Shown here piece after piece: positions 8,713-60,862 of a stretch of 64,000 nt of DNA. This DNA comes from an uncultured Candidatus Saccharibacteria bacterium (lineage in GTDB: Bacteria; Patescibacteriota; Minisyncoccia; 2-02-FULL-40-12; GWA2-44-9). Every line of letters starts with the position of its first letter. Positions within the stretch are counted from its first letter, which is position 1. The position numbers were made by a program, and so were the translations under genes. The DNA is taken from assembly GCA_964491455.1 (NCBI GenBank), contig CAZBFM010000001.1, forward strand, positions 564,903-628,902, in the 5' to 3' direction. The notes beneath the pieces are model-generated. The model made no database searches, was not told where the DNA came from, and saw only the letters and a program-made list of their open reading frames with translations.

Positions 8713-8739
8713 CCATTACGACGAAAAATGTAAAAGCCC

Positions 8740-8767
8740 GTCGTGCGTGAAATCGTTCACGCACGAC
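8740..8767 (-). terminator. 12-bp perfect hairpin followed on the minus strand by a T-rich tract
   Basis: GTCGTGCGTGAA-atcg-TTCACGCACGAC, with GGGCTTTTACATTTTT after it on the minus strand. Sits between the upstream tRNA-Pro 5' pseudo-fragment and the intact tRNA-Pro. Confidence 0.5.
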
Positions 8768-8811
8768 CTTCATGAACCCGAATCATGCGTACGACCGGTA
8801 TACTACGGCGC
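8768..8811 (-). other. 44-nt perfect direct repeat of the tRNA-Pro 5' portion (nt ~4-46), a pseudo-tRNA fragment
   Basis: cttcatgaacccgaatcatgcgtacgaccggtatactacggc is identical to 8668-8711. It lacks a T-arm and a 3' acceptor strand. Confidence 0.7.
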
Positions 8812-8853
8812 GCTTTCGCACTTGAAAGCCGCACTATCATACCATGGAAATCA

Positions 8854-9869: not shown

Positions 9870-9875
9870 ACGTGA

Positions 9876-10451: not shown

Positions 10452-10634
10452 ACGGAATAGTATAGCTAATATCGTTACAGAGTGTAAGACGTATCAGATT
10501 GCAAATCCTTACAGGACTAGCAGAAACAGCCTATTTATGGTACTTTCCCATGGATTCGGCGGGCCCCTATGAATACATACGCGGCCCGACATTCGCACGA
10601 GTATGATGTAAGCAATTCTATTCGATGCTCGCTT

Positions 10635-10707
10635 GGGCCCATAGCTCAGCTGGTAGAGCGCGTCATTCGCATTGACGAGGTCAGGAGTTCGATTCTCCTT
10701 GGGTCCA
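10635..10707 (+). tRNA. tRNA-Ala (anticodon CGC)
   Basis: G3:U70, anticodon loop TTCGCAT, T-loop TTCGATT, A73 followed by CC. Confidence 0.75.
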
Positions 10708-10744
10708 CCGTTTGCACTCTAACAATTCAAACAAGGAAGCAATC

Positions 10745-16540: not shown

Positions 16541-18153
16541 GAACTTCTCGACTTACCTCCACGACACTTCTCATCCTCTACGTGTGCGCGTTTACGTATC
16601 TTGGCGCGCTGCTGGGACTAACACTCACTCGTGCAGCTCAACCAATCGAATTTAAAAATGGCCAACCACCAAGTAGCTTGAGCGTCGGACAAATTATTGC
16701 AGAAGCAGGACTCAATGGGGGCAAGTATCAGGCATGCAAAGGGGATATCTTTACGCTCTTTCAAGGGCAACTCGACAAAAAACTTACGAGAGTCGCCACT
16801 GAATTAGTCTCTGACGCATTACGCGCATACAAAGATCAAATGGCTTCGTATCTTGTATGCCGCGCTGAAAGCTTCCTTAATAATTTGTGCGTTTTTGGTA
16901 GCTGCGCAGGAGGAGGCATTGATTGCAAGAAGCCGATTGCAAGTGATGTGACATCATATCTCAAATTAAATTGGAAGGACTCTCTCAAGTCATCATTTTT
17001 AGCGAGCTGCACATCTCTTTACGCACTCAAATTCACTGGCGACACCGTGGACCAAAACATCCTTGAAAACGGCCCCGGTGGCGCTCCCGCCTATGCGACG
17101 AACTGGATTGAGACCGCCAACACAGCCTCAGATAAAGAGGGGAAGCGGCGATTCTGGACAATTCTGTCTAACACGAAGATTTGCCCGTATTTCAAGGAAG
17201 AAGTGTATCGCTATTTTGAAGTTCCTAGAGAATACATCGAGACTCCTCCACTCATGAACGCTTCTGACATGCAGGTGTCTGCTGATACTCCATTTACTCT
17301 TGTAGGCGGATGCACACTTCCTACGCAAGAGTTCGATACAGGTTCCTACGAATTTCTCTCCAAACTCATCGAGCCTCAGAATAACTTTAACGGCTTTGTG
17401 AGATTAGCCGAGGAAGAACAAAAGAAGCAACGAGAAGCAGCCGTATCCGCTGCCAAAGAACAACTGATTGCCGGTGGGGGATTTCTACCCACGTACGCGT
17501 CGGGAAGTTGCAACGAGGATCCGAACGGTAAGTGCATTAGCTACGGTGGCATCGCATTGCCACCGGGTGCAGTTCGGGACTCTCGTATGGCAGATATTAC
17601 GGCAAATTATAATAAGATGCTCCAATCAAATGGAGAGAATTATGTTGGCATGACCGACCTCGGTGCGCGCTTGCAAGTCCGTATCTTGGGGCTCATGAAC
17701 AAACCGCTTCCACTCAAGCTTGAGCTTGGCTCCGAATTTGATGAAGCAAACTTTACTCCCATTGCCACTCCCGTTACTGGCACCAACCCCAATGATCCAA
17801 CATGCACCGGTGGCAACGCGCAATGCACCTGCGTCAAAGACAATCCAGACGCCCAGAGGATCGCCTCGAGCATTCTTGCTCCGGCGATTGAGCGCGCCCG
17901 GTCCAAGCACCCCGAATTTTTTGTGACTGGGTCAAGCCAAATTGCGCCAGGCGTCGATTACCGCCTCGTACTTGCGGCCATCTGCAGCGACTTCAGCGCT
18001 GTTTGCGCTCCTCATCCAAACCAAGACGATGAAATTGTTATTATCAGCGCCGATGGCCTGACCATTTCCTACGATGTCATCACTGGAGATGGCTACGCAC
18101 GCACCGATGGGGGAGCCCCCGTAGCGCAATGTGAGCCTGGTATTCAAAACTAG
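16537..18153 (+). CDS. Cys-rich secreted/membrane-anchored hypothetical protein
   Basis: 538 aa with an N-terminal TM or signal, many Cys and no known domain. 4-nt overlap with the upstream gene. Confidence 0.5.
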   Translation: MRTSRLTSTTLLILYVCAFTYLGALLGLTLTRAAQPIEFKNGQPPSSLSVGQIIAEAGLNGGKYQACKGDIFTLFQGQLDKKLTRVATELVSDALRAYKDQMASYLVCRAESFLNNLCVFGSCAGGGIDCKKPIASDVTSYLKLNWKDSLKSSFLASCTSLYALKFTGDTVDQNILENGPGGAPAYATNWIETANTASDKEGKRRFWTILSNTKICPYFKEEVYRYFEVPREYIETPPLMNASDMQVSADTPFTLVGGCTLPTQEFDTGSYEFLSKLIEPQNNFNGFVRLAEEEQKKQREAAVSAAKEQLIAGGGFLPTYASGSCNEDPNGKCISYGGIALPPGAVRDSRMADITANYNKMLQSNGENYVGMTDLGARLQVRILGLMNKPLPLKLELGSEFDEANFTPIATPVTGTNPNDPTCTGGNAQCTCVKDNPDAQRIASSILAPAIERARSKHPEFFVTGSSQIAPGVDYRLVLAAICSDFSAVCAPHPNQDDEIVIISADGLTISYDVITGDGYARTDGGAPVAQCEPGIQN

Positions 18154-18155
18154 AT

Positions 18156-20846
18156 ATGAATTTTCGCAAGGCATCTTCTATTATTCTGCTTCTTCTGATC
18201 ATCATCTGGCCTCAACCAGCGCACGCATTTGGCGAGGGGGCGATGGCGACCGTTTTGAGCGTTTTTAATGCCGTCATTGAAATTATTCAAGCGGCAATTG
18301 TGAAGCTTCTTATTACGTCGGGTCAACTCCTTCAAGACGTCATCCATCTTGAGATGTCGTACGGGGGAGCAGCTGTCTATATGGTCTGGAAAATCTTTCG
18401 CGATATTTGCAATTCGCTGTTTATCATCTTTTTCATCATCATCGCCTTTAGTACCATCTTCAACTCTATCGCCCCGAAAGGCTTAAAGCCCTATTTCTGG
18501 AAGGAAGCGCTCACCAATGTCATCTTGGCTGCGATTTTGATTAATTTTAGTCTCCCCATTGGGCAGGCGATGATATGGGCTGGCAACGCATCTGGTAGCT
18601 ATATGCTCAAGGCAATAGGAGTTGGCGATTTTGGCAAAAAAATTGCCGAAAATCTCAATTTTGCCGCTGTCATTGCTGGAACAAGCGCACAGCAATATCC
18701 CACCGTTTCTGTAGACTTTCCGGAATCGAGCAATCTTTCCGCTGCCAACCTCACTGGCGTTCAGTCTTGGGTAGCTGCATCGCAATACGACACAGCACTT
18801 GGCCAGGCAGCACGCGCTGCAATACCCGTTATGAAAAAGTGTCTGGAAGCGAATCGTCCGCCAGTGGAATGCTACAACGAGGGAGTCGCTATGCATAAAA
18901 ATGAATTGATAGTTGCCGCCGACAAAGACGCCAAGGCAAAAGCGGCGGCGGAAAAAGCGCAAGCTGATTACGACGCTTGTATGAATCCATCATCGCCGAA
19001 TCGAGATAGCGTCGTCGTAAAAAATTGCGGTGAAAAACCACCTTCCGCTCCTAGCTCCGACTACCTAATGGACGCCGGGCAGTATACTCGTTTCTTTGGA
19101 TCTATGCTTCTCACTGGAAAGTGGGCAATCACCGCGCCCTCGGGCCCCACAGACTTAGACGGGCAGGTGAGTTTATTACTAAGTAATATCCTTCATCTCA
19201 TAATGATGCTTGCCATCGTATTGTCGTTTTCATCGATCATCATCTTCCAGGTTGCGCGTATTCCTGCGGGATGGTTTCTCCTCTCATCGTCGGCAATGGC
19301 ATTTTTTTCGATAGCTATGCCAGGCTCAACTCTCTTTGGTAAGTGGCGCGATAATATGATTGGATGGGCACTCTTTACGCCGCTCTATCTTTTTGTGATT
19401 TATATTGGATTGTTTGTGCTCGAACAACGAGGCACGCTTTTGGCAAGCATGAGCAACGCTCAGATGCCATTTTTCATGGGTAAACTGGGAATTGTACTCT
19501 TCTACTTCATCACGGCATTTATTTTCATGCGTGGTGCGAAGTGGGCACAAGAAACGGCATTCGGGTATAGCAAGATGGCGGGCACAGCATTTGGCGCAAT
19601 CGCGTCGAGGATGGGTGTCGATGAGAAGTCCAACTTTGGCCTCACAACAGCGGCGGGTGGTCTAGCGAAGTATTCTGGCGCACAAGGAGCCTACGAGTCC
19701 GTGAAAGCCACGGGCGAGGCACGCATCGCAAAGATGAAGCAGGGGATCTCTGACAGCTCGTTTTTGGCAATGCCTTCTTATTTGCGATCTAAAACCTATG
19801 CTGAAAAACTTGCTGAGGGCAAAGCCGCGATGGGAGTGCGCGGCGCGGATGCCGAAGTGGATAAATTCCTTCAAGAAAGGATCAAGGGTCACAAAGAAAG
19901 AATTGAATACGAGGCAGATAAAATCACTGATAAAACTAAGAAAACCGCCTATCTTCAATCTCAACTCAACAGCGGAAATCGCGATGTAGCGCTGGCCGCT
20001 GGCGAGATACTCCTCAAGCAAGGGAAGCTCACCCCAGCTCAAATCTCTATGCTTTCTGGTAAGTATGGAGACATTTCTCAGGTCGCTAAGAAAGAATTCC
20101 AGAAGCGAGTCACTGAGCAATCCAAGAAAGATGCGCGCAAATTGGTCCCAGCAAATTTTGCAGAACTACTAGAGCGCGTAAAAGTAGCTGGAAAATCAGA
20201 AGACAAACGGGCATTCCTTGAAGCTGGTTTATCAGGAGAGATAGGCCAGATGAAGCTATCCGGTGCAGACTTATTAGCGCTCACGGGTGAAATGGATAGC
20301 GTCGAAGACAAACGGGCATTCCTTGAAGCTGCCACTAAAACCGGCCGCAACAAAGTAACTGCCATTGAAACTATGGCCAACCTTGGGCTCATAACGGATC
20401 GAAATGGTGTTAAAACTTCTGCGGCTGAAGCGATTGAAGACCGTGCGAAATCTTTATCAGATGTAGATCTACTGGATGCAGAAGAGTACTTTCATGCCGG
20501 AGGGAAGCCCATGTCTCCAGTATTGAAGGAGAAAATGAAGCAATCAATTAAGAATCCGGAAAAGTTTGGTCAAATTATAAGAAACGTCTCGGGTCCAGAT
20601 CAGCAACTACGAATACTCGATGAATTTTCAGATATAAAACACGCTAGTTCAATTGCGCGACGGGACGTTAAAGAACTTGAAAAGAAAGAGCGGAAATACG
20701 CGAAAGGAATCAAGCAATTACAAAAGAAGGCTGATAAATTGGTCGGTGCTAAGAAGAAACGAATAGAAGACTGGATTGAGGATTTGGAGGTAAAACGAAG
20801 CGAAATGAAGGAAGAGATGCAGAAAAAGAAAAAAGAAATAACTTAA
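18156..20846 (+). CDS. polytopic membrane protein, VirB6/TrbL-like (putative), with Lys-rich coiled-coil C-terminus
   Basis: At least 7 predicted TM helices in the first ~480 aa, then a long charged or coiled-coil tail ending KKKKEIT. Lies 1.5 kb upstream of virB4. Confidence 0.45.
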   Translation: MNFRKASSIILLLLIIIWPQPAHAFGEGAMATVLSVFNAVIEIIQAAIVKLLITSGQLLQDVIHLEMSYGGAAVYMVWKIFRDICNSLFIIFFIIIAFSTIFNSIAPKGLKPYFWKEALTNVILAAILINFSLPIGQAMIWAGNASGSYMLKAIGVGDFGKKIAENLNFAAVIAGTSAQQYPTVSVDFPESSNLSAANLTGVQSWVAASQYDTALGQAARAAIPVMKKCLEANRPPVECYNEGVAMHKNELIVAADKDAKAKAAAEKAQADYDACMNPSSPNRDSVVVKNCGEKPPSAPSSDYLMDAGQYTRFFGSMLLTGKWAITAPSGPTDLDGQVSLLLSNILHLIMMLAIVLSFSSIIIFQVARIPAGWFLLSSSAMAFFSIAMPGSTLFGKWRDNMIGWALFTPLYLFVIYIGLFVLEQRGTLLASMSNAQMPFFMGKLGIVLFYFITAFIFMRGAKWAQETAFGYSKMAGTAFGAIASRMGVDEKSNFGLTTAAGGLAKYSGAQGAYESVKATGEARIAKMKQGISDSSFLAMPSYLRSKTYAEKLAEGKAAMGVRGADAEVDKFLQERIKGHKERIEYEADKITDKTKKTAYLQSQLNSGNRDVALAAGEILLKQGKLTPAQISMLSGKYGDISQVAKKEFQKRVTEQSKKDARKLVPANFAELLERVKVAGKSEDKRAFLEAGLSGEIGQMKLSGADLLALTGEMDSVEDKRAFLEAATKTGRNKVTAIETMANLGLITDRNGVKTSAAEAIEDRAKSLSDVDLLDAEEYFHAGGKPMSPVLKEKMKQSIKNPEKFGQIIRNVSGPDQQLRILDEFSDIKHASSIARRDVKELEKKERKYAKGIKQLQKKADKLVGAKKKRIEDWIEDLEVKRSEMKEEMQKKKKEIT

Positions 20847-20849
20847 TTC

Positions 20850-21365
20850 ATGAATCCAGAGATAGTAGCCGAAAAAATACCAGCGCCGTTCATCTGTCTT
20901 TTGATGGGGAGGGACGCGGATGAACAATATCTGCTTTCTGCCGCTTTCCTAGCGCTCGATGATTCTGAGCAAGAGATTCTAGTCGGGGAAAGTACTGTCA
21001 AAGAAATTGCAACCTGGATTTCGAGTGGTTTATTACCTCAAACCCATGCGGTCGCGATAGCAAAAATCATAGGAATGCTAGCATTAGAAGACGACATCTC
21101 CCCGGGCGCACTTCCTCAAATTCTCGATAGCATCGGCATTCAATCTGCGGCAAAGTTAATTCTCTCTGAAAAGATAACTCAACTCGTTCAGCCATTCCTT
21201 GAAGACACGAACGAATTTGAACCCGAAACACCTCCTTCGCAGTCCCTTAATTCGACACCAACCATCGCGCCGCTGTCGCCGCTTAGAACATCGAAGCCTG
21301 TGCCCGTGCCACCTCCGCCAAACCGTACTACAATAGACCTACGAGATAAGAAATTAACACCGTGA
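20850..21365 (+). CDS. hypothetical protein (Pro-rich C-terminus)
   Basis: 171 aa, tightly packed between the TrbL-like and VirB3-like genes. Confidence 0.45.
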   Translation: MNPEIVAEKIPAPFICLLMGRDADEQYLLSAAFLALDDSEQEILVGESTVKEIATWISSGLLPQTHAVAIAKIIGMLALEDDISPGALPQILDSIGIQSAAKLILSEKITQLVQPFLEDTNEFEPETPPSQSLNSTPTIAPLSPLRTSKPVPVPPPPNRTTIDLRDKKLTP

Positions 21366-21679
21366 GATTTCAAGTCCCACAATTTATTGATACCGAGACC
21401 AAGCTCATTGGGCCTTTCACGTTAATGCAGTTTTTGTTTGTAGCTGGCGGCGTGAGCCTACTTTCGGTTGTGTGGATACTCTTCAACGGCATTTTGTTTG
21501 CCATTCTCGCGCTCCTCATCGCTGCATTTTTTGGCTCACTCGCATTCTTGCGTATCGATGGGCAGCCATTTCTCAATTATTTAGCCTACATGTTGGCGTA
21601 TGCGCTTGGCTCTAAGAGGGCAGTGTATCAAATCAAGCAGGAACCGAATCAATTTACTCCACCCACGCATGGCAACTGA
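21362..21679 (+). CDS. small two-TM membrane protein, VirB3-like (putative)
   Basis: 105 aa with two TM helices. Encoded immediately upstream of virB4 with an 11-nt overlap, as virB3 is in T4SS operons. Confidence 0.4.
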   Translation: MRFQVPQFIDTETKLIGPFTLMQFLFVAGGVSLLSVVWILFNGILFAILALLIAAFFGSLAFLRIDGQPFLNYLAYMLAYALGSKRAVYQIKQEPNQFTPPTHGN

Positions 21680-22307
21680 AACCTCTACAACCGATCTCAT
21701 TCAAATTCAGGAATTGCGTGATGGGGTGCTTATCCTTAAAGACGGGTCGTTACGCGCCGTGGTCAAGATATCGGCAATCAATTTTGAGCTTCGCTCAAGC
21801 GATGAACAGCAAGCAATCCTGCAGCAGTTTGGGGCGTTTATGAATTCCATTGATTTTCCAATACAAATGGTTGCTCATTCTCGTCGATTCGATATTACTA
21901 CCTACCTCGCTAATCTTGAATCGGCTACGCAAGGTCTCACCAACGACCTCCTGAAGGTGCAGTCGGGGGAGTATGCAAGATTTGTTCGCGAATTGTCAGA
22001 GCTCGCCAATATCATGCAAAAGAATTTCTACGTCGTACTCCCTATGGAGGTCACAGCAACATCCGAAAGTACGGGATTCTTTGGAGGCATCAAGGAGATG
22101 TTTAAGAAAACACAAAGAGCACAATCGCTCTCGTCAGACCAGCTCGCCCTGTTTCGCTCTCAGCTCCAGCAACGCGCTGACCTGATATTAGGAAGCGTCT
22201 CTGGTATGGGCCTGAAGGGCTCTATGCTTGAGCAGGAAGAGCTCGTAGCTCTGTTCAATGATGTCTACAACCCCGTTGTACCCGCCGCACCTCAACCTAA
22301 CGCGTAA
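21669..22307 (+). CDS. virB4: VirB4/TrbE N-terminal domain fragment (ends at in-frame TAA 22305-22307)
   Basis: IQIQELRDGVLILKDGSLRAVVKISAINFEL..QQAILQQFGAFMNSIDFPIQM matches the VirB4/CagE N-terminal domain. It is in the same frame as the following ATPase ORF. Confidence 0.6.
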   Translation: MATETSTTDLIQIQELRDGVLILKDGSLRAVVKISAINFELRSSDEQQAILQQFGAFMNSIDFPIQMVAHSRRFDITTYLANLESATQGLTNDLLKVQSGEYARFVRELSELANIMQKNFYVVLPMEVTATSESTGFFGGIKEMFKKTQRAQSLSSDQLALFRSQLQQRADLILGSVSGMGLKGSMLEQEELVALFNDVYNPVVPAAPQPNA

Positions 22308-22310
22308 CCT

Positions 22311-24056
22311 ATGGAACTACCACCTGTCGGAGTATCTACAACACTTGCGCCCTCGGCAATAAAAATATCGCCCAACTTTTTGCAGGTCGGCGACAAATAC
22401 GCACGAACCATCTTTATAGCGACCTATCCGAGATTCTTAAATGCCAACTGGCTCTCGCCCATAGTGAACCTTGATAAGGTGCTCGATGTTTCGATTTTCG
22501 TAACACCGCAATCGACCGCCACTATGCTCAAGCAGTTGCGCGACCAGCTCACTCGCGTGCAATCTCAACTCATGGAAGAAGAGTCGGCGGGAAAAGTGAG
22601 AAACCCCATGCTTGAAACGGCAGTCGGTGACTTGGAATCGCTGCGTGATAGCCTTCAACAGGGGACCGAGCGATTCTTCCAGGTTGGACTCTACGTCACC
22701 ATGTATGAAAACAGCCTCCACGACCTCGACGAAACAGAGGGGAAGATAAAAAGCATACTCGATGGCCTCCTCGTGATTCCTAAGCAGACATCGTTTCGGA
22801 TGCTGGAAGGTTTTCTCACTACCTCGCCACTGGCCGATGATCGCATCCGTGCATTGACCCCGCTCAATACTCAACCCATCTCGTCGATGTTCCCGTTTGT
22901 GTCCAGCGACCTTACTTCCAACACGGGTATTCTATACGGTATCAACACCACCAATAACAGCATGGTGATATTTGATAGGTTCTCGCTTGAAAACGCAAAC
23001 TCCGTCATGTTTGCAAAATCAGGAGCCGGAAAAAGCTACACGGTGAAGCTTGAGCTTCTTCGCTATCTCTATCTGGGAACGCAGGTTCTCGTCATTGACC
23101 CTGAAAATGAGTATGGCTTTTTAGCGGATACTGTCGGAGGCACCAACGTTATAATCTCCATCAATTCCGATCAGCATATTAATCCGTTTGATTTACCAAC
23201 ACCGAAAGACGAAGAGTCTTGGAGTGACGTATTTAATTCGCATATCCTAAACTTAGCCGGACTCATGAAGCTCATCATGGGAGGGGGACTCACGCCCGAA
23301 GAAGAATCCATGCTCGATGAGGCGCTCATTCAAACATATGCGATTAAAGATATTGTGCCCGATTCAGATTTCTCCAAGCTTCCACCGCCTATCCTTTCTG
23401 ATCTTCACAACATTCTCTCCGGCATCACCGGCGCGGAGCGGATGGCAACACGTTTGGAAAAGTTTACCACGGGTACCTTTGCGGGCTTCTTGAATCATCC
23501 GACCAATGTACCACTCGATAATAACCTCGTTGTATTTGGTCTTCGTGACTTAGAGGACGAGCTCCGTCCAATCGCGATGTATTCGGTGCTTAATTATATC
23601 TGGGCGCAGGTGCGTCGTATACGAAAGAAGCGAATTCTCGTGGTAGATGAGGCGTGGGTACTCATGAAATACCAGACCGGTGCAGAATTCTTATTCAATA
23701 TCGCAAAGCGTGGACGTAAGTATTACTGCGGACTCTCGACGATCAGCCAAGACATTCCCGACTTCATGTCCACGCCGCAGGGGAAGGCAATCGTCACCAA
23801 CTCATCGATGCAAATGCTCATGAAACAATCACCCGCTTCCATCGATATCATTCAGCAAACGTTCAACCTTACCGATTCTGAGAAATTCTACCTCCTGGAA
23901 GCACGCGTAGGCTTTGGATTGTTCTTCCTCGGCGCTAACCACGTGGGCCTGCGAGTAATGGCTTCGTACGCAGAAGATCAAATCATCACATCCGATCCTC
24001 GTCAGCTTCTCGAGATAGAGAAGGCAAAAGAGGAGTGGGCTAAAGTAGGCAATTAA
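22311..24056 (+). CDS. virB4: VirB4/TrbE/CagE-family type IV secretion ATPase (C-terminal ATPase part)
   Basis: Walker A FAKSGAGKSYTVK, Walker B ILVVDEAW, and VGDKYARTIFIATYP at the start of the middle domain. Confidence 0.85.
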   Translation: MELPPVGVSTTLAPSAIKISPNFLQVGDKYARTIFIATYPRFLNANWLSPIVNLDKVLDVSIFVTPQSTATMLKQLRDQLTRVQSQLMEEESAGKVRNPMLETAVGDLESLRDSLQQGTERFFQVGLYVTMYENSLHDLDETEGKIKSILDGLLVIPKQTSFRMLEGFLTTSPLADDRIRALTPLNTQPISSMFPFVSSDLTSNTGILYGINTTNNSMVIFDRFSLENANSVMFAKSGAGKSYTVKLELLRYLYLGTQVLVIDPENEYGFLADTVGGTNVIISINSDQHINPFDLPTPKDEESWSDVFNSHILNLAGLMKLIMGGGLTPEEESMLDEALIQTYAIKDIVPDSDFSKLPPPILSDLHNILSGITGAERMATRLEKFTTGTFAGFLNHPTNVPLDNNLVVFGLRDLEDELRPIAMYSVLNYIWAQVRRIRKKRILVVDEAWVLMKYQTGAEFLFNIAKRGRKYYCGLSTISQDIPDFMSTPQGKAIVTNSSMQMLMKQSPASIDIIQQTFNLTDSEKFYLLEARVGFGLFFLGANHVGLRVMASYAEDQIITSDPRQLLEIEKAKEEWAKVGN

Positions 24057-24061
24057 CACCA

Positions 24062-25063
24062 ATGCCCGAGCAATTATCCCAACGCAGCGCCTCGCCACGG
24101 ATGACCGATATTCGGCCGCAGCAACTTCGTGCGCCTTCGATTCCATTGCCATCCCGCAGTGACCACGTTGCGTCCAGAAAAACTAGTTCATCTCAACTCA
24201 ATACAATCCTCGACGGCTATGATCATGCGACTGCACTTTTTGCATCCCTTCGAAGAACTCAGCAGGGAATCTCTAGCGCATATACACAGGTTCAAAAAGG
24301 TCACGCACGCGAAATGGACGACGCCTCACTCGATGCCGCACGAAAGGTAAAGAAACCCTCTAAGCTTCGGTATTCGCTCTTCATTTGGCTTTGTATTATT
24401 GCAGATACCGCTGGCGCGGCTCTCATAACCGGAGCTTTTGCGGCAGCCCCAGAAACGTTTGGAGTTGGCGCGGTTCTAGGAATTCTAGTAACGATATTGA
24501 TAACGATCATCATGTGGATTGGATCTAGAATTTTTCTAGGAAAACGAGCAAAGGAAGTAAAAGAACACATCGACCAGTTGCGAGAAAAATCAAAGGATCT
24601 TGCACGTGACATTCAGGTGGCACAACAACAATACAACAATCTGTTGACCTGGATGGGCACTGCGAAGAAAGAATTCCCTCAGCTGGCCTCGCAAGGAAGC
24701 GCGCTTATTGTAAAAGCAGGCGCTCTTGCACAGAAAACAAACATGATTAAATACTCTGGAAAAGCCATGATTTGGGTGAGTAACATCATAAAAAATCCTA
24801 TCTTCGTCCGCATCAGCGAGTTAATTCCTTTTTGGAATATATTGCCCTGGTGGACGATTGGCGCGGTAGCAACATACATCTCGCATAAGGCTGACTGGCG
24901 TGAGGCACAAGATATACTAAATGGTTATACGAGCGGCAAACAAGAAGTAATGAACACTACTAGCGCACTCTATAAAACGCGCCTTGCTCTGACTCAAGCA
25001 ATTTTCAAAAAGAATATCAATACATTAACTGCAAACCAACTTCATGAAGCGGCGACAACTTAA
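24062..25063 (+). CDS. hypothetical membrane protein of the T4SS-like cluster
   Basis: 333 aa with TM helices around residues 105-150 and a coiled-coil segment. No known domain. Confidence 0.5.
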   Translation: MPEQLSQRSASPRMTDIRPQQLRAPSIPLPSRSDHVASRKTSSSQLNTILDGYDHATALFASLRRTQQGISSAYTQVQKGHAREMDDASLDAARKVKKPSKLRYSLFIWLCIIADTAGAALITGAFAAAPETFGVGAVLGILVTILITIIMWIGSRIFLGKRAKEVKEHIDQLREKSKDLARDIQVAQQQYNNLLTWMGTAKKEFPQLASQGSALIVKAGALAQKTNMIKYSGKAMIWVSNIIKNPIFVRISELIPFWNILPWWTIGAVATYISHKADWREAQDILNGYTSGKQEVMNTTSALYKTRLALTQAIFKKNINTLTANQLHEAATT

Positions 25064-43521: not shown

Positions 43522-43593
43522 GTCCCCGTAGCTCAACGGATAGAGCAGCAGCCTTCGAAGCTGTTGATGGGGGTTCGATTCCCTCCGGGGACA
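43522..43593 (+). tRNA. tRNA-Arg (anticodon TCG)
   Basis: Acceptor GTCCCCG/CGGGGAC, anticodon loop CTTCGAA, D-loop AACGGATA. No CCA. Confidence 0.75.
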
Positions 43594-43615
43594 CACTCCG
43601 GCACGCACATTTCAT

Positions 43616-43691
43616 CCGCCCTTAGCTCAGTTGGTAGAGCTGCTCCCTCTTAAGGAGAAGGTCCCTGGTTCGAATCCAGGAGGGCGGACCA
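43616..43691 (+). tRNA. tRNA-Lys (anticodon CTT), CCA encoded
   Basis: Acceptor CCGCCCT/AGGGCGG, anticodon loop CTCTTAA, and a genomic 3' ACCA. Confidence 0.8.
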
Positions 43692-43698
43692 TCACAAA

Positions 43699-43730
43699 CA
43701 GAAAACACCCCGCGAGGGGTGTTTTCTGTT
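43699..43730. terminator. bidirectional intrinsic terminator (13-bp perfect stem)
   Basis: CAGAAAACACCCC-gcga-GGGGTGTTTTCTG with flanking A and T tracts. Serves the tRNA pair on the plus strand and the 3D-domain gene on the minus strand. Confidence 0.8.
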
Positions 43731-43733
43731 GGC

Positions 43734-44279
43734 TTACTTGATGACTTCAATCTGGACGAGGCGACGACCCAATTTAATAGCATCGGCCTTTGATTCAAAC
43801 CAGACGTCAACGTTCTTCTTGTACCGAGTGTTCATACGGTCTTCGACAACGAAGATCTTATCTCCAAAGAGAGAGGGGATCTTGATGGCGGTACCGAAGG
43901 GGAACATGTTAGTGGCAACGATACCATCACGGACGTGAGTACCTTTTGCTGTAATGAACGGACTGTCATCAGTCTGGCCCACCTCGGAGTTGTAAGCAGA
44001 CACTTCAACCATATAGTACTGACGAATAGTCTTTGCAGCGCCACCTTTGGGAGAGTTGATCGCGGCTATCGCATTACCAACGACGGTAGGCTGTTCATTG
44101 TCTTGAGCAGCACCCTGCGTGATAGAGGCGTAGAGAGAGTCGAAGGATCCGTTGCTGGCAACGTCCGAAGACGCAGCGTTAGAACGAAACCAATCGAGAA
44201 ATCCTGCCTGCGCAGATGTCGTGGTAAGGAGCGAGATTGCAATGAGCGATACGACCAGAATGTGCTTTCGCGTATTCAT
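43734..44279 (-). CDS. secreted 3D-domain (MltA-like) cell-wall-binding protein
   Basis: Signal peptide and a C-terminal 3D domain (GIVATNMFPFGTAIKIP...IFVVEDRMNTRYKKNVDVWFES...LGRR). Confidence 0.7.
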   Translation of the reverse strand: MNTRKHILVVSLIAISLLTTTSAQAGFLDWFRSNAASSDVASNGSFDSLYASITQGAAQDNEQPTVVGNAIAAINSPKGGAAKTIRQYYMVEVSAYNSEVGQTDDSPFITAKGTHVRDGIVATNMFPFGTAIKIPSLFGDKIFVVEDRMNTRYKKNVDVWFESKADAIKLGRRLVQIEVIK

Positions 44280-44537
44280 GGTGTTTCCGTCTACGATAGA
44301 GGGGTGAGTCGTTTCTGCCTATGCAGGACGGCTCTCCAGAATCGTTACAGGCGGCGTTGCAATCCAGCTCTTTATCAGGGGAGAGGAATTAAAAAATGGC
44401 CTACTTGAGCCATATATTAGTACCTCTATTACTCACTGGATTGTACATACAGTATAGCAAATATAGAGCAAAAAGTCAATAGCTGCGTACCATCACGAAA
44501 AGATGCAAAAACGCCCCTTTTGAGGCGTTTTATGGTG

Positions 44538-44608
44538 AGCGGGTAAGGGGAGTCGAACCCCTTTCTGGTCCTTGGCAAGGACCCATAATACCGGTATACG
44601 ATACCCGC
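44538..44608 (-). tRNA. tRNA-Gly (anticodon GCC)
   Basis: Anticodon loop TTGCCAA and U73 discriminator. An own promoter TTGATT-16 nt-TATACT lies at 44622-44649 on the minus strand. Confidence 0.75.
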
Positions 44609-44675
44609 AACTACGAAAGACAGTATACCACGAAGATGGAGCGAATCAATATCCAGGAGCTTGAGGGTGTGGGCG

Positions 44676-44884
44676 ATGTATGTGTCGCATAATTATCTTG
44701 TCGCACAATATAGAATACCTTGATCGGATGTGGATACCGAGTGGGGACTAGTATCGTGTCGCAAAATGAATTCTAGTGATGATGATCTGTGGACATGCGT
44801 AGCTGATAACTGACATGTCGCAAAATGGAAGTTTGTGTATCTGTTGTGTGGATACCGAGTGGGGAATACTATCGTGTCGCAAAA
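44676..44884. repeat. cluster of five GTCGCA(A/C)AAT-type motifs including two 38-bp direct repeats
   Basis: GTCGCA at 44684, 44700, 44757, 44817 and 44876. tgtggataccgagtggggaNtaNtatcgtgtcgcaaaa occurs at 44729-44766 and 44847-44884 with 36 of 38 positions identical. Confidence 0.6.
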
Positions 44885-44921
44885 GAAAACCACCCGATAA
44901 TGGATGGTTTTCTTGGTATTT

Positions 44922-44993
44922 GTGCCGGGCCCCAGAGTCGAACTGGGCACGCCTGCCTCTTCAGGGCAGCGCTCTACCGATGAGCTAGCCCGG
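44922..44993 (-). tRNA. tRNA-Phe (anticodon GAA)
   Basis: Anticodon loop CTGAAGA, A73, and -10 TACAAT 13 nt upstream. Confidence 0.8.
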
Positions 44994-45086
44994 CAGCTAT
45001 GACTATTGTATCCCTTCGCGCCTATGCGCTTGTGGGTACTTGGCCAGCCACTCTCTTCAGGATGCTGAATATTGAGTGGCCAAGTG

Positions 45087-45160
45087 TGGGCGATATAGGA
45101 CTCGAACCTATAACCTTCTCAACGTCAATGAGACGCTCTAGCCAATTGAGCTAATCGCCC
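45087..45160 (-). tRNA. tRNA-Val (anticodon GAC)
   Basis: Anticodon loop TTGACGT, A73. Confidence 0.75.
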
Positions 45161-45249
45161 GTATCTGATTGTTGTTCCGTGCGCCTATGCGCGTGTGGGT
45201 ACTTGGCCAGTATCCTGCCTCAACATACAGAACAAAGAGTGACCAAGTG

Positions 45250-45333
45250 TGCGCGGGAGAGGACTTGAACCTCCATGCCCTTGCGGGCGCTACCACCTCA
45301 AGGTAGTGCGTCTGCCAGTTTCGCCACCCGCGC
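45250..45333 (-). tRNA. tRNA-Leu (anticodon GAG)
   Basis: Type-II tRNA with long variable arm, anticodon loop TTGAGGT, A73. Confidence 0.75.
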
Positions 45334-45373
45334 ATCTATCGCTATACATTCAACTGCCGGCATAGCATAGCGC

Positions 45374-45402
45374 AAAAGCCCACCTTTTTCAAGGTGGGCT
45401 TT
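45374..45402 (-). terminator. intrinsic terminator of rplS
   Basis: AAAAGCCCACCTT-tttc-AAGGTGGGCTTT. The minus-strand reading is followed by TTTTGCG. Confidence 0.7.
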
Positions 45403-45411
45403 GGGGGAGGA

Positions 45412-45825
45412 CTAGGAGGTGGCCTCTTCGGTCGCCGGGGCTTCCTCGGCTGCGATTGATGCGACGGATGCCTCTGAGCGGGTCTTGCGGCGGATCTCTT
45501 TGGCGGTCTTGTCGCGGAGGTAGTACATCTTTGCTCGGCGAGTGCGTCCTGCTTTGACGACTTCGATCTTATCGATGGAAGGAAGGCGCAGTGGGTAGAC
45601 TTTTTCGACGCCATAGCCACCGATAGAGCGACGGACGGTCATTGTGGCGCCGGCCTCATCACCGTGCTTGCGGGCGATGATAATACCCTCGAAGATCTGG
45701 TTCTTTCCCTTTTCTCCTGCTTTGAGACGCTGGTGTACCCGTACTGTCATGCCGACCTTAAGGTCCGCATATTTGCTTGCGGGGTTGTGCTTGTCTGCGA
45801 ATGTAGAAATGATTTGCTGGGACAT
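45412..45825 (-). CDS. rplS: 50S ribosomal protein L19 (with C-terminal Ala/Glu-rich extension)
   Basis: Conserved core KVGMTVRVHQRLKAGEKGKNQIFEGIIIARKHG...YGVEKVYPL. Confidence 0.9.
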   Translation of the reverse strand: MSQQIISTFADKHNPASKYADLKVGMTVRVHQRLKAGEKGKNQIFEGIIIARKHGDEAGATMTVRRSIGGYGVEKVYPLRLPSIDKIEVVKAGRTRRAKMYYLRDKTAKEIRRKTRSEASVASIAAEEAPATEEATS

Positions 45826-45843
45826 GGGATTTGAAATGTCTGG

Positions 45844-46536
45844 CTATTGTAGCGTATCTAATACTTTTTGTAAAGGCTCTGGAAGGTCGGCTTCTAGGCG
45901 CATAGAAGTGCCTGACGGGGTGGTGAGTTCGAGCTTCCAGGCGTGCAAAAAGGGTCGATCAAGACCGAGGGTCTCTTTGCCAGGGGAGTAGAGCGGGTCG
46001 CCAACGATAGGGGTCCCGATTGCTTTGAGGTGGGCCCGAATTTGATGGGTACGACCCGTGCGAGGCATGCATTCGATGAGCGAATAACCATCGAAGCGAC
46101 GAGTGACTTTGTAGTCGGTAATAGCAGTACGCTCTACGAGGTCTCGAGTCCCGTGTATGTGGGTTGTTGTTTTGGCGCCAACCCGTCCGACGGGCATATC
46201 AATAGTGCCTGAAGCTTCTTTTGGTGTTCCATGTGCTAGTGCAAGGTAGGTTTTACGAATCTTGTGATCGTGAAAAAGGGACTTTAGGTATTCAAAACTC
46301 TTTTGATTTATTGCTAGCAGCATAACCCCTGAAGTGTCGCGGTCGAGACGATGCACTATTCCAGGGCGCAGAGGGTCTTCGCCGACGCCACTCATTTCCG
46401 GCCAGCGCTCAATGGCAAGATCGGCCAGAGTAATCTGGGGGTCATCTTGAGATGTTTTATGCACGGTAAGACCGGGCGGCTTATCGATGGCCACAAAATC
46501 GGAGTCTTCGTAGATGACGGAGAGGTCTAGAGCCAT
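45844..46536 (-). CDS. RluA-family pseudouridine synthase
   Basis: Catalytic motif HRLDRDTSGVMLLA. Confidence 0.85.
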   Translation of the reverse strand: MALDLSVIYEDSDFVAIDKPPGLTVHKTSQDDPQITLADLAIERWPEMSGVGEDPLRPGIVHRLDRDTSGVMLLAINQKSFEYLKSLFHDHKIRKTYLALAHGTPKEASGTIDMPVGRVGAKTTTHIHGTRDLVERTAITDYKVTRRFDGYSLIECMPRTGRTHQIRAHLKAIGTPIVGDPLYSPGKETLGLDRPFLHAWKLELTTPSGTSMRLEADLPEPLQKVLDTLQ

Positions 46537-46973
46537 AGGATGAAATTGATTGCGATCAATACGGTAAAGACGAAAGCCTCATATCGCGAGAAAAATCCAA
46601 CGGGTCCTCGGATGTTCACTGCTTGAAAGGGGTAGAATGGCCAATAGTCGGCAGAATCGAGTGCGTCGAGTAGGAGGTGTCCCAGATGAGAGAATGATAT
46701 AGTGGCGGCGTAGAGGGGAGCGAAAAGCAACGAAAATGCCATGATCAGCGAGAGAGTGAATACAGAATGTAGGTGTCCGCGTTGTCCGCTATACGGATCC
46801 TCGGTCTGGGTAATGGTTTTCCAAAACAATCTAGGATCTTTGAGGACTCCGTGGTGATAGTAAACTCCAAGATGATCGACGTCGATAAGCGCGGATGCCA
46901 CAAGTGCAAGGATGGGTTGGCCAGTGATGGCACCAATTATGCCACCGAGTGCAAGGTGAGTCGGGAGGGTCAT
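46527..46973 (-). CDS. membrane-bound metal-dependent hydrolase-like protein (YdjM/DUF457-like?)
   Basis: 148-aa polytopic membrane protein with His-rich motifs (DVDHLGVYYHHG, HLGHLLLD). Confidence 0.4.
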   Translation of the reverse strand: MTLPTHLALGGIIGAITGQPILALVASALIDVDHLGVYYHHGVLKDPRLFWKTITQTEDPYSGQRGHLHSVFTLSLIMAFSLLFAPLYAATISFSHLGHLLLDALDSADYWPFYPFQAVNIRGPVGFFSRYEAFVFTVLIAINFILWL

Positions 46974-46982
46974 GTTTGAGGG

Positions 46983-47056
46983 TGGGCGCTGAGGGATTCG
47001 AACCCCCGACCTACTCGGTGTAAACGAGTCGCTCTAACCAACTGAGCTAAGCGCCC
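46983..47056 (-). tRNA. tRNA-Val (anticodon TAC)
   Basis: Anticodon loop TTTACAC, A73. Confidence 0.75.
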
Positions 47057-47151
47057 TTTTCGGACACAGGATTATGCTACTTTTTGAGAGATTTAGCAAG
47101 CAATAATAAAACCGAGGATGGAGCCTCGGTTGCACATGCGCTATTTAGTGG

Positions 47152-47457
47152 CTATTTGAAAGCAGCGAAGTAGCCAGCGATTTCCTTGCGAAAATCAGGA
47201 TGGCACAACTGCAGGATGAGGTCCTCGGGCACGCCTATGTCCAGAGCATCAAACGCGGTGTTGAAAACCACATTTACGCGTTCTTCGATGACCGCGACGT
47301 TGAAGGCGGAGATGTGGCCGTCGACCAGAAGTGCGTACCTCTCCGAGGCCGCTTCGAGCGCGGCTACTGCCTTTTTTTGAGGCTCATTGAGGGATTCAAT
47401 GAGGAGTTGAGCCTGGTACCGATCTGGATTGAGCAATCGAAGAAAGAACCTGCCCAT
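47152..47457 (-). CDS. hypothetical protein (start trimmed to clear tRNA-Ile)
   Basis: Internal Met chosen (MGRFFLRLLNPDRY...). The ORF to 47613 overlaps the tRNA. A plus-strand alternative ORF at 47200..47469 is equally unsupported. Confidence 0.3.
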   Translation of the reverse strand: MGRFFLRLLNPDRYQAQLLIESLNEPQKKAVAALEAASERYALLVDGHISAFNVAVIEERVNVVFNTAFDALDIGVPEDLILQLCHPDFRKEIAGYFAAFK

Positions 47458-47579
47458 ACGATCGAGTAGCTTCACGAGACCTCCTTGGTAAATGACTAAA
47501 AATATAATAACAGCAAATATTATATGAGTCAAATCACGCACACAAGTCCGACACCGGGGAGGTATCGGACTTGTTATGG

Positions 47580-47653
47580 TGGGCCCGCCTGGACTCGAAC
47601 CAGGGACATCCAAGGTATAAGCTTGGCGCTCTAACCAGCTGAGCTACGGGCCC
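47580..47653 (-). tRNA. tRNA-Ile (anticodon TAT)
   Basis: Anticodon stem CCAAG/CTTGG with loop CTTATAC, A73, and standard D and T arms. Confidence 0.65.
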
Positions 47654-56240: not shown

Positions 56241-57569
56241 ATGAATATTACATCTATCCTTACCGACTCACGAAAGCTCACCTATATACTGGGCGCCTCG
56301 ATCGCGCTCTTGGTTTTTTTGGCGTTTTTATTCGTGCTCTCTAATTCCCTTGGTAATAGCACGGCCATATCTGCTGACCTCGTAGTGTGGGGGGTGTTTG
56401 ATGATGCCGCAGCTTTTCAAGAGTCTATCAGCGCATTTGAGGGTGCCAATAAGGGTATTAAAGTTTCGTACAAAATGTTTAAGCCGCAAGAGTATGAGCA
56501 GGCGGTGCTCAACGCGCTCGCAGCTGGAACGGGTCCAGATGTCTGGATGATTCATCATACGTGGCTTCCTAAGCACGCGGACAAACTCATCTCGATGCCG
56601 GCGGTTGCACCGGGACAAAAGGGGCCACTGATGACGCTGCGACAGTATCAGGATTTGTTTGTAGATGTTGCGCAGCAAGATCTCGTTGTTGACGGCAAGA
56701 TTTACGGGATGCCGCTGTACGTCGATACGCTTGCGCTCTACTACAACAAGGATATATTTGCGTCTTCGGGTATCGCTCAACCACCTGCGACATGGGCGAC
56801 CTTTTTGGACGACGTAAAAAAGATCACAACCTATGATGACAGCAGGAACATCACACGATCCGCGGTAGCCCTGGGAACAGCCCGCAATATTAATCGCGCA
56901 ACCGATATATTGATGATGCTTATGTTGCAATCTGGCGTGCGCATGACTGATGCTGACAATGCACAGGCTTCATTTGCTCGAGCCGTCGACGGTACTCCCG
57001 TGGGAGAAAACACGCTACAATTCTTTACTGATTTCGCAAATCCTCAGCGAGTATCATACACGTGGAACGATTCGATGGATTACTCGTTTGATGCTTTTAT
57101 TGCGGGCACAACAGCGATGATGATCAACTACGAGCACCAAATCCCGGCGCTGCGAAAGGCAGCCCCACGACTTCATTGGGCTGTTGCGCCTGTGCCTCAA
57201 GCATCGCTTGCTGATGTCCGTACCTATGCAAACTATTGGCCACTTGTTGTTTCGGCAAAAACAAAGTCTCCGGATGCTGCATGGAGCTTTGTGCATTACA
57301 TGACGGCCGGGGATGGCGCGATTGCGTATTTGAATGCATCAGGACGGCCTGCGGCTCGCAAGGATCTCATCGAACAGCAGAAGTCGGATCCCGATCGAGG
57401 GGTGTTTGCTGAGCAGGCATTATCTGCGCGATCGTGGTATCAGGTTGACTCGGCAGCGATAGAAACAATTTTTGCCGAGATGATTGACGGTGTAAATCTT
57501 GGAAAACAAACAATATCACAGGCATTGAAGGCCGCAGATGCGCGCGTGTCTGTGTTGATGTCGCGCTAA
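56241..57569 (+). CDS. ABC transporter extracellular solute-binding protein (family 1, sugar-type)
   Basis: N-terminal TM or signal and the family-1 fold. No permease or ATPase is adjacent. Confidence 0.7.
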   Translation: MNITSILTDSRKLTYILGASIALLVFLAFLFVLSNSLGNSTAISADLVVWGVFDDAAAFQESISAFEGANKGIKVSYKMFKPQEYEQAVLNALAAGTGPDVWMIHHTWLPKHADKLISMPAVAPGQKGPLMTLRQYQDLFVDVAQQDLVVDGKIYGMPLYVDTLALYYNKDIFASSGIAQPPATWATFLDDVKKITTYDDSRNITRSAVALGTARNINRATDILMMLMLQSGVRMTDADNAQASFARAVDGTPVGENTLQFFTDFANPQRVSYTWNDSMDYSFDAFIAGTTAMMINYEHQIPALRKAAPRLHWAVAPVPQASLADVRTYANYWPLVVSAKTKSPDAAWSFVHYMTAGDGAIAYLNASGRPAARKDLIEQQKSDPDRGVFAEQALSARSWYQVDSAAIETIFAEMIDGVNLGKQTISQALKAADARVSVLMSR

Positions 57570-57578
57570 CGGTACCCC

Positions 57579-58742
57579 ATGAAAGGATTACGCTTACCAT
57601 TACTCTTCATAGCGATTATCGGGTTGGCTCTTGGGCCTACGGTGGTTTCTGCGGCTGATTTTCTTCCTATCGTAAAATGCGGAGCAACAGGGCAGGCGCC
57701 ATGTACGCCGTGCGATATTTTTGGATCGCTCAAGAATATTATCGATTTTATTCTCAAGGGAGTTACAGGTCCGGTCGCTGCGTTTATGATTGTCTATTCT
57801 GGCGGCATGATGCTTCTGGGTGGAGGGAAACCCGAACTCTATAGTGAGGGCAAGAAGATGCTCACGAACACACTTATTGGTGTCACGATCATTCTGCTTG
57901 CGTGGGTAGTGACTAATTTCTTGATTCGCGCACTCATGCCGGGAGTGTCGACGGGCTCGTCTTGGTTTGAGTTTTCGTGTCCTGCGAGCTTATCTGCTAT
58001 CGCACCAATCGACACGACGCTGCCAAGTCCAGTTCCTAGTACAGCGGCTGACGGCTCCACTCCTGCTGCGCCCCCAACCACGAAGCCTTCGTATGCGGGT
58101 ATCTTGTGCCCAATTAGTGACAAGATAAATACATGCAGCACAGACTATGTGTGCCAAGGATGTCCAGAGTATAGAAATGCTGGATATTTTACAAAATATG
58201 GTGCAGACGCGAGAATCCTCGAGGCCATCATGGCAGTGGAGTCCTCCTGCGGAAGCGCGGGGTCGTTGGTGAGTAGTGCGCAAGCTTACGGTATAATGCA
58301 GCTTAAGACAGACACTGCCAATAAGCATGTGCAGCAGTGTCAGATCTATAAGCTGGGGGATGACGGTCAGCCACTACGAAATACAAAAACAGGACAATTT
58401 GTGTATGAGACGATTACTCCTGCGTGGTTGCTAAATAAAAATAACTTCGAAAAAAGTGTTTGCTTGGCAGCGATGGAGGTGCGCGCGGTCAAGGGCATAT
58501 GCAACAATGATATTCGAAATATTGCCGCTGGATATAATTCTGGACCTGGATGGTGCAAGATTAGCAAGGACTGTGCACAAATGCCGAGTTGTGGGGGTGG
58601 TGTGATGCGCGCCTGGGAGTGTCCATGGGATAACGCAACGCACACTGTATGTAACGAAACCCGTGAAGGTGGGGGGCTCATTGAAACGAAGCGGTACGCA
58701 CCGAAGGTCGCGACGCTAGCAACCTGCGCAAATCCAAAATGA
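57579..58742 (+). CDS. fusion of an N-terminal pilin-like two-TM domain (paralog of the 59365-60672 array) with a C-terminal SLT lytic transglycosylase domain
   Basis: N-terminus VYSGGMMLLGGGKPELYSEGKKMLTNTLIGVTIILLAWVV aligns with the four downstream paralogs. C-terminus has EAIMAVESSCGS...YGIMQL (SLT catalytic Glu-Ser and the GxMQ motif). Confidence 0.65.
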   Translation: MKGLRLPLLFIAIIGLALGPTVVSAADFLPIVKCGATGQAPCTPCDIFGSLKNIIDFILKGVTGPVAAFMIVYSGGMMLLGGGKPELYSEGKKMLTNTLIGVTIILLAWVVTNFLIRALMPGVSTGSSWFEFSCPASLSAIAPIDTTLPSPVPSTAADGSTPAAPPTTKPSYAGILCPISDKINTCSTDYVCQGCPEYRNAGYFTKYGADARILEAIMAVESSCGSAGSLVSSAQAYGIMQLKTDTANKHVQQCQIYKLGDDGQPLRNTKTGQFVYETITPAWLLNKNNFEKSVCLAAMEVRAVKGICNNDIRNIAAGYNSGPGWCKISKDCAQMPSCGGGVMRAWECPWDNATHTVCNETREGGGLIETKRYAPKVATLATCANPK

Positions 58743-60726: not shown

Positions 60727-60778
60727 TTTGTAGTCGATCGCCCTCTTTCATACATACAGAATATTGAGTGGCCACGTG

Positions 60779-60862
60779 TGCTGGGGAGAGGACTTGAACC
60801 TCCACGGGATTGCTCCCACCAGCTCCTAAGGCTGGCGCGTCTGCCAATTTCGCCACCCCAGC
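60779..60862 (-). tRNA. tRNA-Leu (anticodon TAG)
   Basis: Type-II tRNA, anticodon loop CTTAGGA, A73. Its 3' trailer carries the conserved CTTGGCCACTCAATATT motif. Confidence 0.75.

Follow-up and report, generated by a model that had tools for sequence, protein, structure and literature searches.

What would a peptidoglycan-cutting enzyme be doing on a pilin? The question is raised by one gene in a 64,000-nucleotide stretch of DNA (hereafter the window) from an uncultured Candidatus Saccharibacteria bacterium (GenBank assembly GCA_964491455.1, contig CAZBFM010000001.1, positions 564,903 to 628,902 of the forward strand). Its product joins the two-helix hairpin of a VirB2-type pilin to the SLT domain of family-1 lytic transglycosylases. 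Both halves are ordinary members of known families, and it is the anchor that sets the fusion apart from all characterised VirB1-like hydrolases. The fusion is conserved and seems to be undescribed, its proteins being already present in public databases under automatic names. As discussed below, it may serve as the wall-opening enzyme of a type IV secretion system (T4SS).

Architecture of the pilin-SLT fusion protein

The layout of the protein was read from its sequence, from hydropathy and from an AlphaFold2 (AF2) model with a mean predicted local distance difference test score (pLDDT) of 80 (Table 1). A predicted signal peptide, whose cleavage site was read by eye from the sequence and not from a predictor, is followed by a short Cys-rich head, by the two hydrophobic helices of the hairpin with the charged loop KPELYSEGKKM between them, by a W.EFSCP motif, by a disordered linker, and finally by the enzyme domain. 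The protein contains 18 Cys, about 15 of them conserved, and 14 of the 18 are located in the globular C-terminal domain. The Cys-rich head is missing from all four small pilins (p1 to p4) that are encoded downstream in the window.

The N-terminal part was assigned to the VirB2-type pilins by several lines of evidence. In a Pfam scan of the fusion protein, residues 58-115 match T4SS_pilin (PF18895) at 33.9 bits against a cut-off of 26.6, and TrbC (PF04956) stays below its cut-off (16.7 bits against 27.9). A hidden Markov model (HMM) of the N-domain, built from 34 full-length homologs, was searched against all 586 six-frame open reading frames (ORFs) of the window. Apart from the self-match, the first four places go to exactly the four downstream pilin ORFs (E-values in Table 1), and the next match has an E-value of 0.2. 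The match spans only the two-transmembrane hairpin, where local identity to the window paralogs is 27-31%, and pairwise BLASTP of the N-domain against p2 gave no alignment, the likeness being visible to profiles only. Judged by these sequence profiles, the likeness to the four pilins is significant but remote. Model and hydropathy also reveal the topology of VirB2-type pilins, namely a signal peptide and then two hydrophobic helices with a short charged loop. The size is what does not fit, since such pilins are single modules of ~70-130 aa, and here a 215-aa enzyme domain stands behind the hairpin in a protein of 387 aa. The fusion protein therefore agrees with PF18895 pilins in sequence and topology, but not in their defining small size. 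A first-pass annotation, made from the DNA letters and their translations, had described the N-terminal ~120 aa as a fifth pilin-like copy and had named homology to the downstream paralogs as a check; the PF18895 score and the ranking of the four paralogs (best E = 2e-9) bear this out.

The C-terminal part matches SLT (PF01464) at residues 205-272, scoring 35.6 bits where the cut-off is 21.3. Each of the four family-1 motifs is present (E221-S222, G238-I-M-Q241, G318-Y-N-S-G322 and Y373-A-P-K-V377), and E221, S222, G238, Y319, N320 and Y373 are invariant in the 34 full-length homologs, which are 30-94% identical. The family profile aligns the ES...GLMQ stretch with the catalytic region of MltC and EmtA (PDB sequences); NCBIfam gave weak matches only, to EmtA and MltC across the same region. 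The C-domain is modelled with a pLDDT of ~90, and its predicted fold matches Slt70 (lysozyme-like, goose-type). The seven best Foldseek matches in the PDB are Slt70-family transglycosylases with probabilities of 0.97-1.0 (5mpq, 6fpn, 5ohu and 1qte at 1.0), their E-values being weak (7e-3 to 0.3) with the whole fusion protein as query. In every feature of sequence and fold that was examined, the protein agrees with the SLT family; conservation of motifs and fold points to a catalytically competent domain, which is predicted to be active. The first-pass annotation had placed an SLT domain (ESSCGS...GIMQL) behind a Pro/Thr linker and a Cys-rich segment, and it had named loss of the catalytic Glu or of the GxMQ context, or an N-domain likeness that is not significant, as grounds for giving up its architectural claim of a wall-cutting enzyme on a pilin-type anchor. 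The linker is disordered, the Glu and the GxMQ context are both present on alignment, and the claim stands with a VirB2-type hairpin and intact SLT motifs.

Table 1. Coordinates of the fusion gene, its parts and associated genes. Positions are those of the window, except for the last three rows, which refer to the related loci named there.
Feature	Position	Strand	Evidence or remark
Pilin-SLT fusion gene	57579..58742	+	ATG start, 387 aa; PF18895 + PF01464; 34 full-length homologs
Predicted signal peptide, aa 1-25 (...VVSA/AD)	57579..57653	+	hydrophobic N-terminal helix aa 5-25
Cys-rich extracytoplasmic head, aa 26-57 (PIV.CG...Q.PCTPCD)	57654..57749	+	C34, C42, C45 invariant in 34-homolog alignment
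VirB2/T4SS_pilin hairpin	57750..57923	+	PF18895; AF2 helices ~44-80 and 85-119; hydropathy; profile match to four paralogs
Transmembrane helix 1 of hairpin (TM1)	~57756-57824	+	
Charged loop of hairpin	57825-57863	+	
Transmembrane helix 2 of hairpin (TM2)	~57864-57932	+	
W.EFSCP motif after TM2, aa 129-135	57963..57983	+	W129, C134 invariant; invariant also in pilin-LAS family
Pro/Thr-rich disordered linker	57984..58094	+	pLDDT <50 at aa 145-169; least conserved part
Cys-rich family-1 lytic transglycosylase (SLT/GH23) domain, ~aa 173-387	58095..58739	+	PF01464, motifs, Foldseek, pLDDT ~90
Catalytic Glu221 codon	58239-58241	+	
GIMQ codons	58290-58301	+	
GYNSG codons	58530-58544	+	
YAPKV codons	58695-58709	+	
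Membrane-anchored carbohydrate-type solute-binding protein (SBP)	56241..57569	+	SBP_bac_1/8; MalE/GanS-like
Conserved partner gene, 203 aa	58739..59350	+	homologs in same place in relatives; start overlaps fusion stop (ATGA)
Small VirB2-like pilin p1, 90 aa	59365..59637	+	PF18895 24.7 bits; profile E = 2e-9; positional orthologs 44-74% identical
Small VirB2-like pilin p2, 102 aa	59624..59932	+	PF18895 27.3 bits (above cut-off); profile E = 1.3e-4
Small VirB2-like pilin p3, 115 aa	59953..60300	+	PF18895 23.1 bits; profile E = 8e-6
Small VirB2-like pilin p4, 118 aa	60316..60672	+	PF18895 22.9 bits; profile E = 0.048; positional orthologs 40-44% identical
T4SS core	21362..24056	+	monoderm-type, 33 kb upstream of fusion
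PrgI/VirB3-like gene	21362-21679	+	PrgI 39.7 bits vs cut-off 27
TrsD-like piece (VirB4 N-terminal part)	21600-22307	+	TrsD-like match
VirB4 ATPase, CD1110 family	22311-24056	+	NF045971 344.7 bits vs 325; P-loop_TraG
Probable pilin-LAS gene at orthologous slot, locus L005	10001-11089		
Probable pilin-LAS gene at orthologous slot, locus L010	10001-10984		
Probable pilin-LAS gene at orthologous slot, locus L024	10001-11101		

Conservation and exchange of the enzyme head

The window is 92% identical at the DNA level, over 12.4 kb, to the contig JAGOPO010000003.1 from a Candidatus Paceibacterota metagenome-assembled genome, which encodes a 94% identical protein named "transglycosylase SLT domain-containing protein" by NCBI. 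A word-indexed search found about 34 full-length homologs that share both Pfam domains, and when 1.84 billion cluster representatives were searched exhaustively with a profile, 233 proteins were obtained at E<=1e-30. A scan of a genome collection relied on one narrow peptide pattern and returned 11 close loci, which says little on taxonomic breadth. When the 197 collected proteins were re-scanned with separate N-domain and C-domain profiles, 144 carried both pilin and SLT halves, 29 carried the pilin with a different C-domain, and one carried all three; the SLT half alone was found in 18 and the pilin half alone in five, these 23 single-half sequences including short, fragment-like ones. The conservation in relatives, which the first-pass annotation had left as a point to check, is thus established. 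A chance ORF or a misassembled fusion was also considered and is ruled out by the 34 full-length homologs on independent contigs.

Mean pairwise identity reaches 59% in the N-domain, compared with 48% in the SLT domain and 31% in the linker. Within the protein, conservation is highest in the N-domain, above even the enzyme, which is more in keeping with specific protein contacts than with a generic anchor.

Relatives of the fusion protein vary in what is inserted or added around the two halves. Some variants have up to several Ig-like domains of the He_PIG, FN3 or purple-acid-phosphatase-N kind between pilin and SLT, a metallophosphoesterase or a second hydrolase follows the SLT domain in other variants, and extra domains precede the hairpin in still others. 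Four long relatives (P0066, P0091, P0099 and P0086) possess stalks of ~200-550 residues with several Ig/FN3-type domains from pilin to SLT, and one long relative adds a calcineurin-like phosphoesterase behind the SLT domain. In the related locus L022 (positions 2488-5259), three pilin-domain proteins of 237-333 aa have a large extracellular module ahead of the hairpin and adjoin the pilin-SLT gene, indicating that VirB2-like pilins accept grafted modules at either terminus.

The enzyme head itself is also exchanged. In three related loci (L005, L010 and L024), the same N-module with an unrelated C-domain is encoded between the SBP gene and the four pilin genes (Table 1). The N-modules of the L005 and L010 proteins are 45-60% identical to that of the fusion, Cys head and W.EFSCP motif included. 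The swapped C-domain has no Pfam or PDB sequence match, and its LAS-type matches rank below many trivial helical-hairpin matches; its assignment as a LAS-fold zinc peptidase is accordingly held as probable, not proven. The head is interchangeable, a natural swap on a conserved carrier that is seen in three independent genomes. One protein, P0091, carries an SLT and a LAS-type domain on one pilin, and P0039 carries SLT and a C-terminal stretch read as M15-like solely from an S-x-H...D and H-x-H pattern. Pairing a glycan cutter with a peptide cutter on one carrier would, by analogy, follow the logic of the Gram-positive VirB1-like hydrolases, among which PrgK, TraG and CwlT have been named (PMC12102498).

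Gene context of the fusion

The fusion gene heads a tightly packed gene string, in which the four pilin genes are 14-21 bp apart or overlapping. Promoter and terminator scans of the 55.5-61.4 kb region gave counts equal to chance expectation, and the operon structure is read from gene spacing alone.

The first-pass annotation had placed the fusion gene directly upstream of the pilin array. This needs correction, because a conserved non-pilin gene of 203 aa sits between them, so that the fusion is one gene away from the array. The product of this partner gene has a signal peptide, a beta-rich domain, a C.DNGVC....GE...NCP.DC motif, a C-terminal transmembrane helix and an RRRR tail, and library scans assigned it to no Pfam or NCBIfam family. 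The partner lies directly 3' of the pilin-SLT gene in L001, L003, L007, L008, L009 and L023 (BLASTP E 9e-47 to 5e-10). With the window counted, there are seven distinct contexts in which it comes after the SLT fusion, those of the divergent L008 and L009 among them, and it is missing where the head is the LAS peptidase (L005, L010 and L024). It could be an inhibitor, a chaperone or a co-factor specific to the SLT head.

Leaving the partner aside, VirB2-like pilin genes come directly after the fusion in nine of ten distinct contexts, and the L008 contig ends too soon. The genes p1 to p4 are positional orthologs across genomes (p1 to p1, p2 to p2 and so on), with 37-74% identity and the order kept, which identifies the array as an old, fixed set of distinct paralogs and not a fast-varying repeat. 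An N-terminal signal peptide is not obvious in p1 and p2 and is found in p3 and p4; the p1 and p2 genes overlap by 14 bp.

An SBP gene stops 9 bp before the fusion gene. Nine related loci (L001, L003, L005, L007, L008, L010, L022, L023 and L024) likewise have an SBP gene directly ahead of the pilin-enzyme gene, and this linkage extends down to a relative with a fusion protein of 30% identity. The SBP has no adjacent ABC permease.

Four related loci (L001, L003, L007 and L023) share the gene order of the window, namely S1, MBL-fold, gyrA, methyltransferase, SBP, pilin-SLT, the ~200-aa partner, four pilins, HSP20, PrsW and valS, though their fusion proteins are only 38-45% identical to that of the window. 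Cargo of a mobile element was considered for this locus and ruled out, since its synteny with housekeeping genes persists across genomes that share ~40% protein identity.

The T4SS core of the window is of the monoderm type. A polytopic membrane protein of 896 aa (18156-20846) is encoded just upstream of the PrgI and VirB4 genes and is, from hydropathy, a candidate extended VirB6. The wider cluster (15626-25063, + strand) stands beside jag and yidC, and several of its members have no family match; it contains a TSP3-repeat secreted protein, a 538-aa protein, the candidate VirB6, PrgI, the split VirB4, a 333-aa membrane protein and a PD40 beta-propeller protein. In ending at jag and yidC, the cluster agrees with the origin-proximal T4SS reported from Patescibacteria (PMC12102498). 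In the related locus L009, the pilin-enzyme genes are located inside such a cluster, in the order PrgI, TraC-like, VirB4, three genes, pilin with an M15-like domain, pilin-SLT, partner, jag and yidC; the L009 fusion is 28% identical and has an N-terminal extension. The lineage of the window has the same T4SS cluster without pilin-enzyme genes, which sit instead at the gyrA-valS locus.

Apart from these genes, the window contains 16 tRNA genes, most of which fall into two loose groups (4142-10709 and 43522-47653). A tRNA-Leu gene (60778-60862, - strand) lies directly behind the pilin array. The 113-aa "gene" called at the p4 position of L010 looks spurious; its peptide closely matches the one obtained by translating across the window's tRNA-Leu, and it probably overlies a tRNA gene.

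Possible function of the fusion protein

With moderate confidence, we favour the view that the fusion protein is the VirB1-equivalent wall-opening enzyme of a Patescibacterial T4SS or pilus, brought to its site by the pilin module. The signal peptide would direct export through Sec and then be removed. The hairpin would insert as a VirB2 pilin does, with both ends outside and the charged loop in the cytoplasm, and by the established VirB2 topology the enzyme domain would then be extracytoplasmic. The flexible Pro/Thr linker of ~35 residues may allow the disulfide-rich SLT domain to reach the wall, where Glu221 would cut MurNAc-GlcNAc bonds. As a paralog of the pilins, the anchor would be drawn to the VirB6/VirB3/VirB4 platform that also handles p1 to p4, and cutting might thereby be confined to the point where the filament crosses the monoderm wall. 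Local opening of the wall for filament assembly, as the first-pass annotation had proposed, is plausible and gains support from the linkage to the T4SS cluster.

Three observations weigh against this reading. The genes gyrA and valS are housekeeping neighbours, and virB4 is 33 kb away here and far in most relatives examined. The long stalk variants put the enzyme beyond what its own wall would seem to need. Finally, a VirB1-equivalent enzyme leaves both the constant SBP neighbour and the SLT-specific partner unexplained.

The stalks and the SBP would find a place if the protein were instead a modular VirB2 pilin, polymerised into the filament of the T4SS, either at its tip or at sparse points along the shaft, with a head that drills through the cell's own wall and mainly breaches the peptidoglycan of a host. 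The termini of VirB2-family subunits both face the outside of the pilus or membrane (PrgF pilus preprint, 10.64898/2025.12.18.695078), so that a C-terminal module is sterically possible, and the principle of module-bearing pilins is established in type IV pili (PMC8179133). Each locus has five fixed orthologous paralogs, as in heteromeric filaments with minor subunits, the Cys-rich head and W.EFSCP cap are limited to enzyme-bearing pilins, and the grafts on other pilins in L022 show that the N-terminal end accepts modules too. Released sugars or muropeptides might further be captured by the co-encoded binding protein, which is of the carbohydrate type and constantly upstream. Against this, pili of the VirB2 family that bear a fused globular module have not been observed, the linker is short in the window's protein, and the hosts of Paceibacteria are not known, some Patescibacteria being associated with archaea that have no murein. 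Overall, we regard a modular pilin as possible but doubtful. Its fullest form, in which heteromeric VirB2-type pili are built from the fixed paralogs, the swappable head, be it SLT, LAS or both and at times on a long Ig/FN3 stalk, acts as an enzyme-tipped drill through the host wall, and the SBP captures the fragments, seems rather unlikely to us, and the capture of wall fragments by the SBP is pure speculation.

The two readings that dispense with a catalytic role in a T4SS are less likely than a VirB1 equivalent. Patescibacteria have small genomes and few wall hydrolases, and the conserved housekeeping synteny (S1, gyrA, methyltransferase ... HSP20, PrsW, valS), distant from virB4 in most genomes, would suit a membrane-anchored autolysin for growth or daughter-cell separation, whose anchor is merely pilin-derived and has no T4SS role. 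Such an enzyme would hardly be expected to keep its anchor better than its catalytic domain, to have pilin genes next to it in nearly all contexts, or to reside inside a T4SS cluster, as it does in L009; nor would a peptidase be expected to replace SLT on the same anchor of a dedicated division enzyme, and this explanation appears improbable. A catalytically dead adaptor, in which the SLT-like domain would do no more than bind glycan strands and fasten the pilus base to the wall, might be suspected from the modest Pfam and PDB sequence scores and from the unusually Cys-rich domain with its lineage-specific insertions, but it is highly improbable with the catalytic Glu and the four motifs invariant or nearly so in 34 sequences of such divergence.

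Comparison with known systems

The VirB1-type lytic transglycosylases (Agrobacterium VirB1, P19 and IpgF) share with the fusion a family-1 SLT/GH23 domain with ES, GLMQ and AYNxG motifs, genetic linkage to T4SS pilin genes (with virB4 33 kb away in the window), and a presumed local opening of the wall for assembly of the machine or pilus. VirB1 is soluble and periplasmic, with a processed C-terminal VirB1*, whereas the fusion is linked to a VirB2 hairpin, rich in disulfides and associated with a monoderm-type system. The Gram-positive hydrolases (PrgK/pCF10, TraG/pIP501, CwlT/ICEBs1 and TcpG) are, as is predicted for the fusion, membrane-anchored extracytoplasmic wall hydrolases of MPF-FATA-type T4SSs. 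They combine glycosidase and peptidase, as do the SLT, LAS and SLT+LAS variants of the fusion family. They have a single N-terminal transmembrane helix or a lipid anchor, and CHAP, NlpC-P60 or LytM peptidases; the fusion family differs in its VirB2 hairpin with a Cys-rich cap and in the LAS (M15-like) peptidase as alternative head.

With VirB2/TrbC/PrgF-type pilins, including the Patescibacterial arrays (PF18895), the fusion shares the signal peptide, two helices and charged loop, and it is a paralog of its four neighbours. It is 3-4x longer than these pilins and has the 215-aa C-terminal enzyme, the extra Cys-rich head and the W.EFSCP motif. By analogy, the nearest conceptual precedent would be the modular type IV pilins PilB/PilC of Streptococcus sanguinis (PMC8179133), in which a module is also grafted on a pilin and encoded beside ordinary pilins. 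PilB and PilC belong to the type 4 filament superfamily, which is unrelated to the VirB2 of T4SSs, and their characterised modules are adhesive (vWA, lectin).

According to a survey of Patescibacterial T4SSs, in which VirB1 and VirB2 were searched separately, most VirB2-bearing Patescibacteria are without a recognisable VirB1, and it was suggested that the pilus may not need one (PMC12102498). The text of that survey contains no SLT or PF01464 entries; such proteins may have been counted there as VirB1, as VirB2 or as both. A VirB2-hydrolase fusion is unmentioned in this survey, in a 2025 T4SS review, in the Southlakia transposon sequencing (Tn-seq) paper, in the PrgF preprint and in the only other paper citing PF18895. 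The remark of the first-pass annotation that the architecture is not recognised from characterised systems holds accordingly, as no description was found in the searchable T4SS or Patescibacteria literature.

Implications

The finding suggests that a wall-cutting function can hide inside a pilin paralog, and a VirB1 function hidden in this way would explain the VirB1 gap in VirB2-bearing genomes. A second suggestion is that pilins of the VirB2 type can serve as modular enzyme carriers, and the finding bears on how the filament of a monoderm T4SS crosses its own wall, and possibly that of a host. Pilin arrays have been found to be essential in a Saccharibacterium (Southlakia Tn-seq, PMC10633639), and in this sole genetically tractable Patescibacterium the T4SS and its VirB2-like array are essential for epibiotic growth, the role of the system being not known (PMC10633639, PMC12857230). 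An enzyme-tipped drill, if true, would explain in mechanistic terms why the T4SS is essential to epibiotic feeding.

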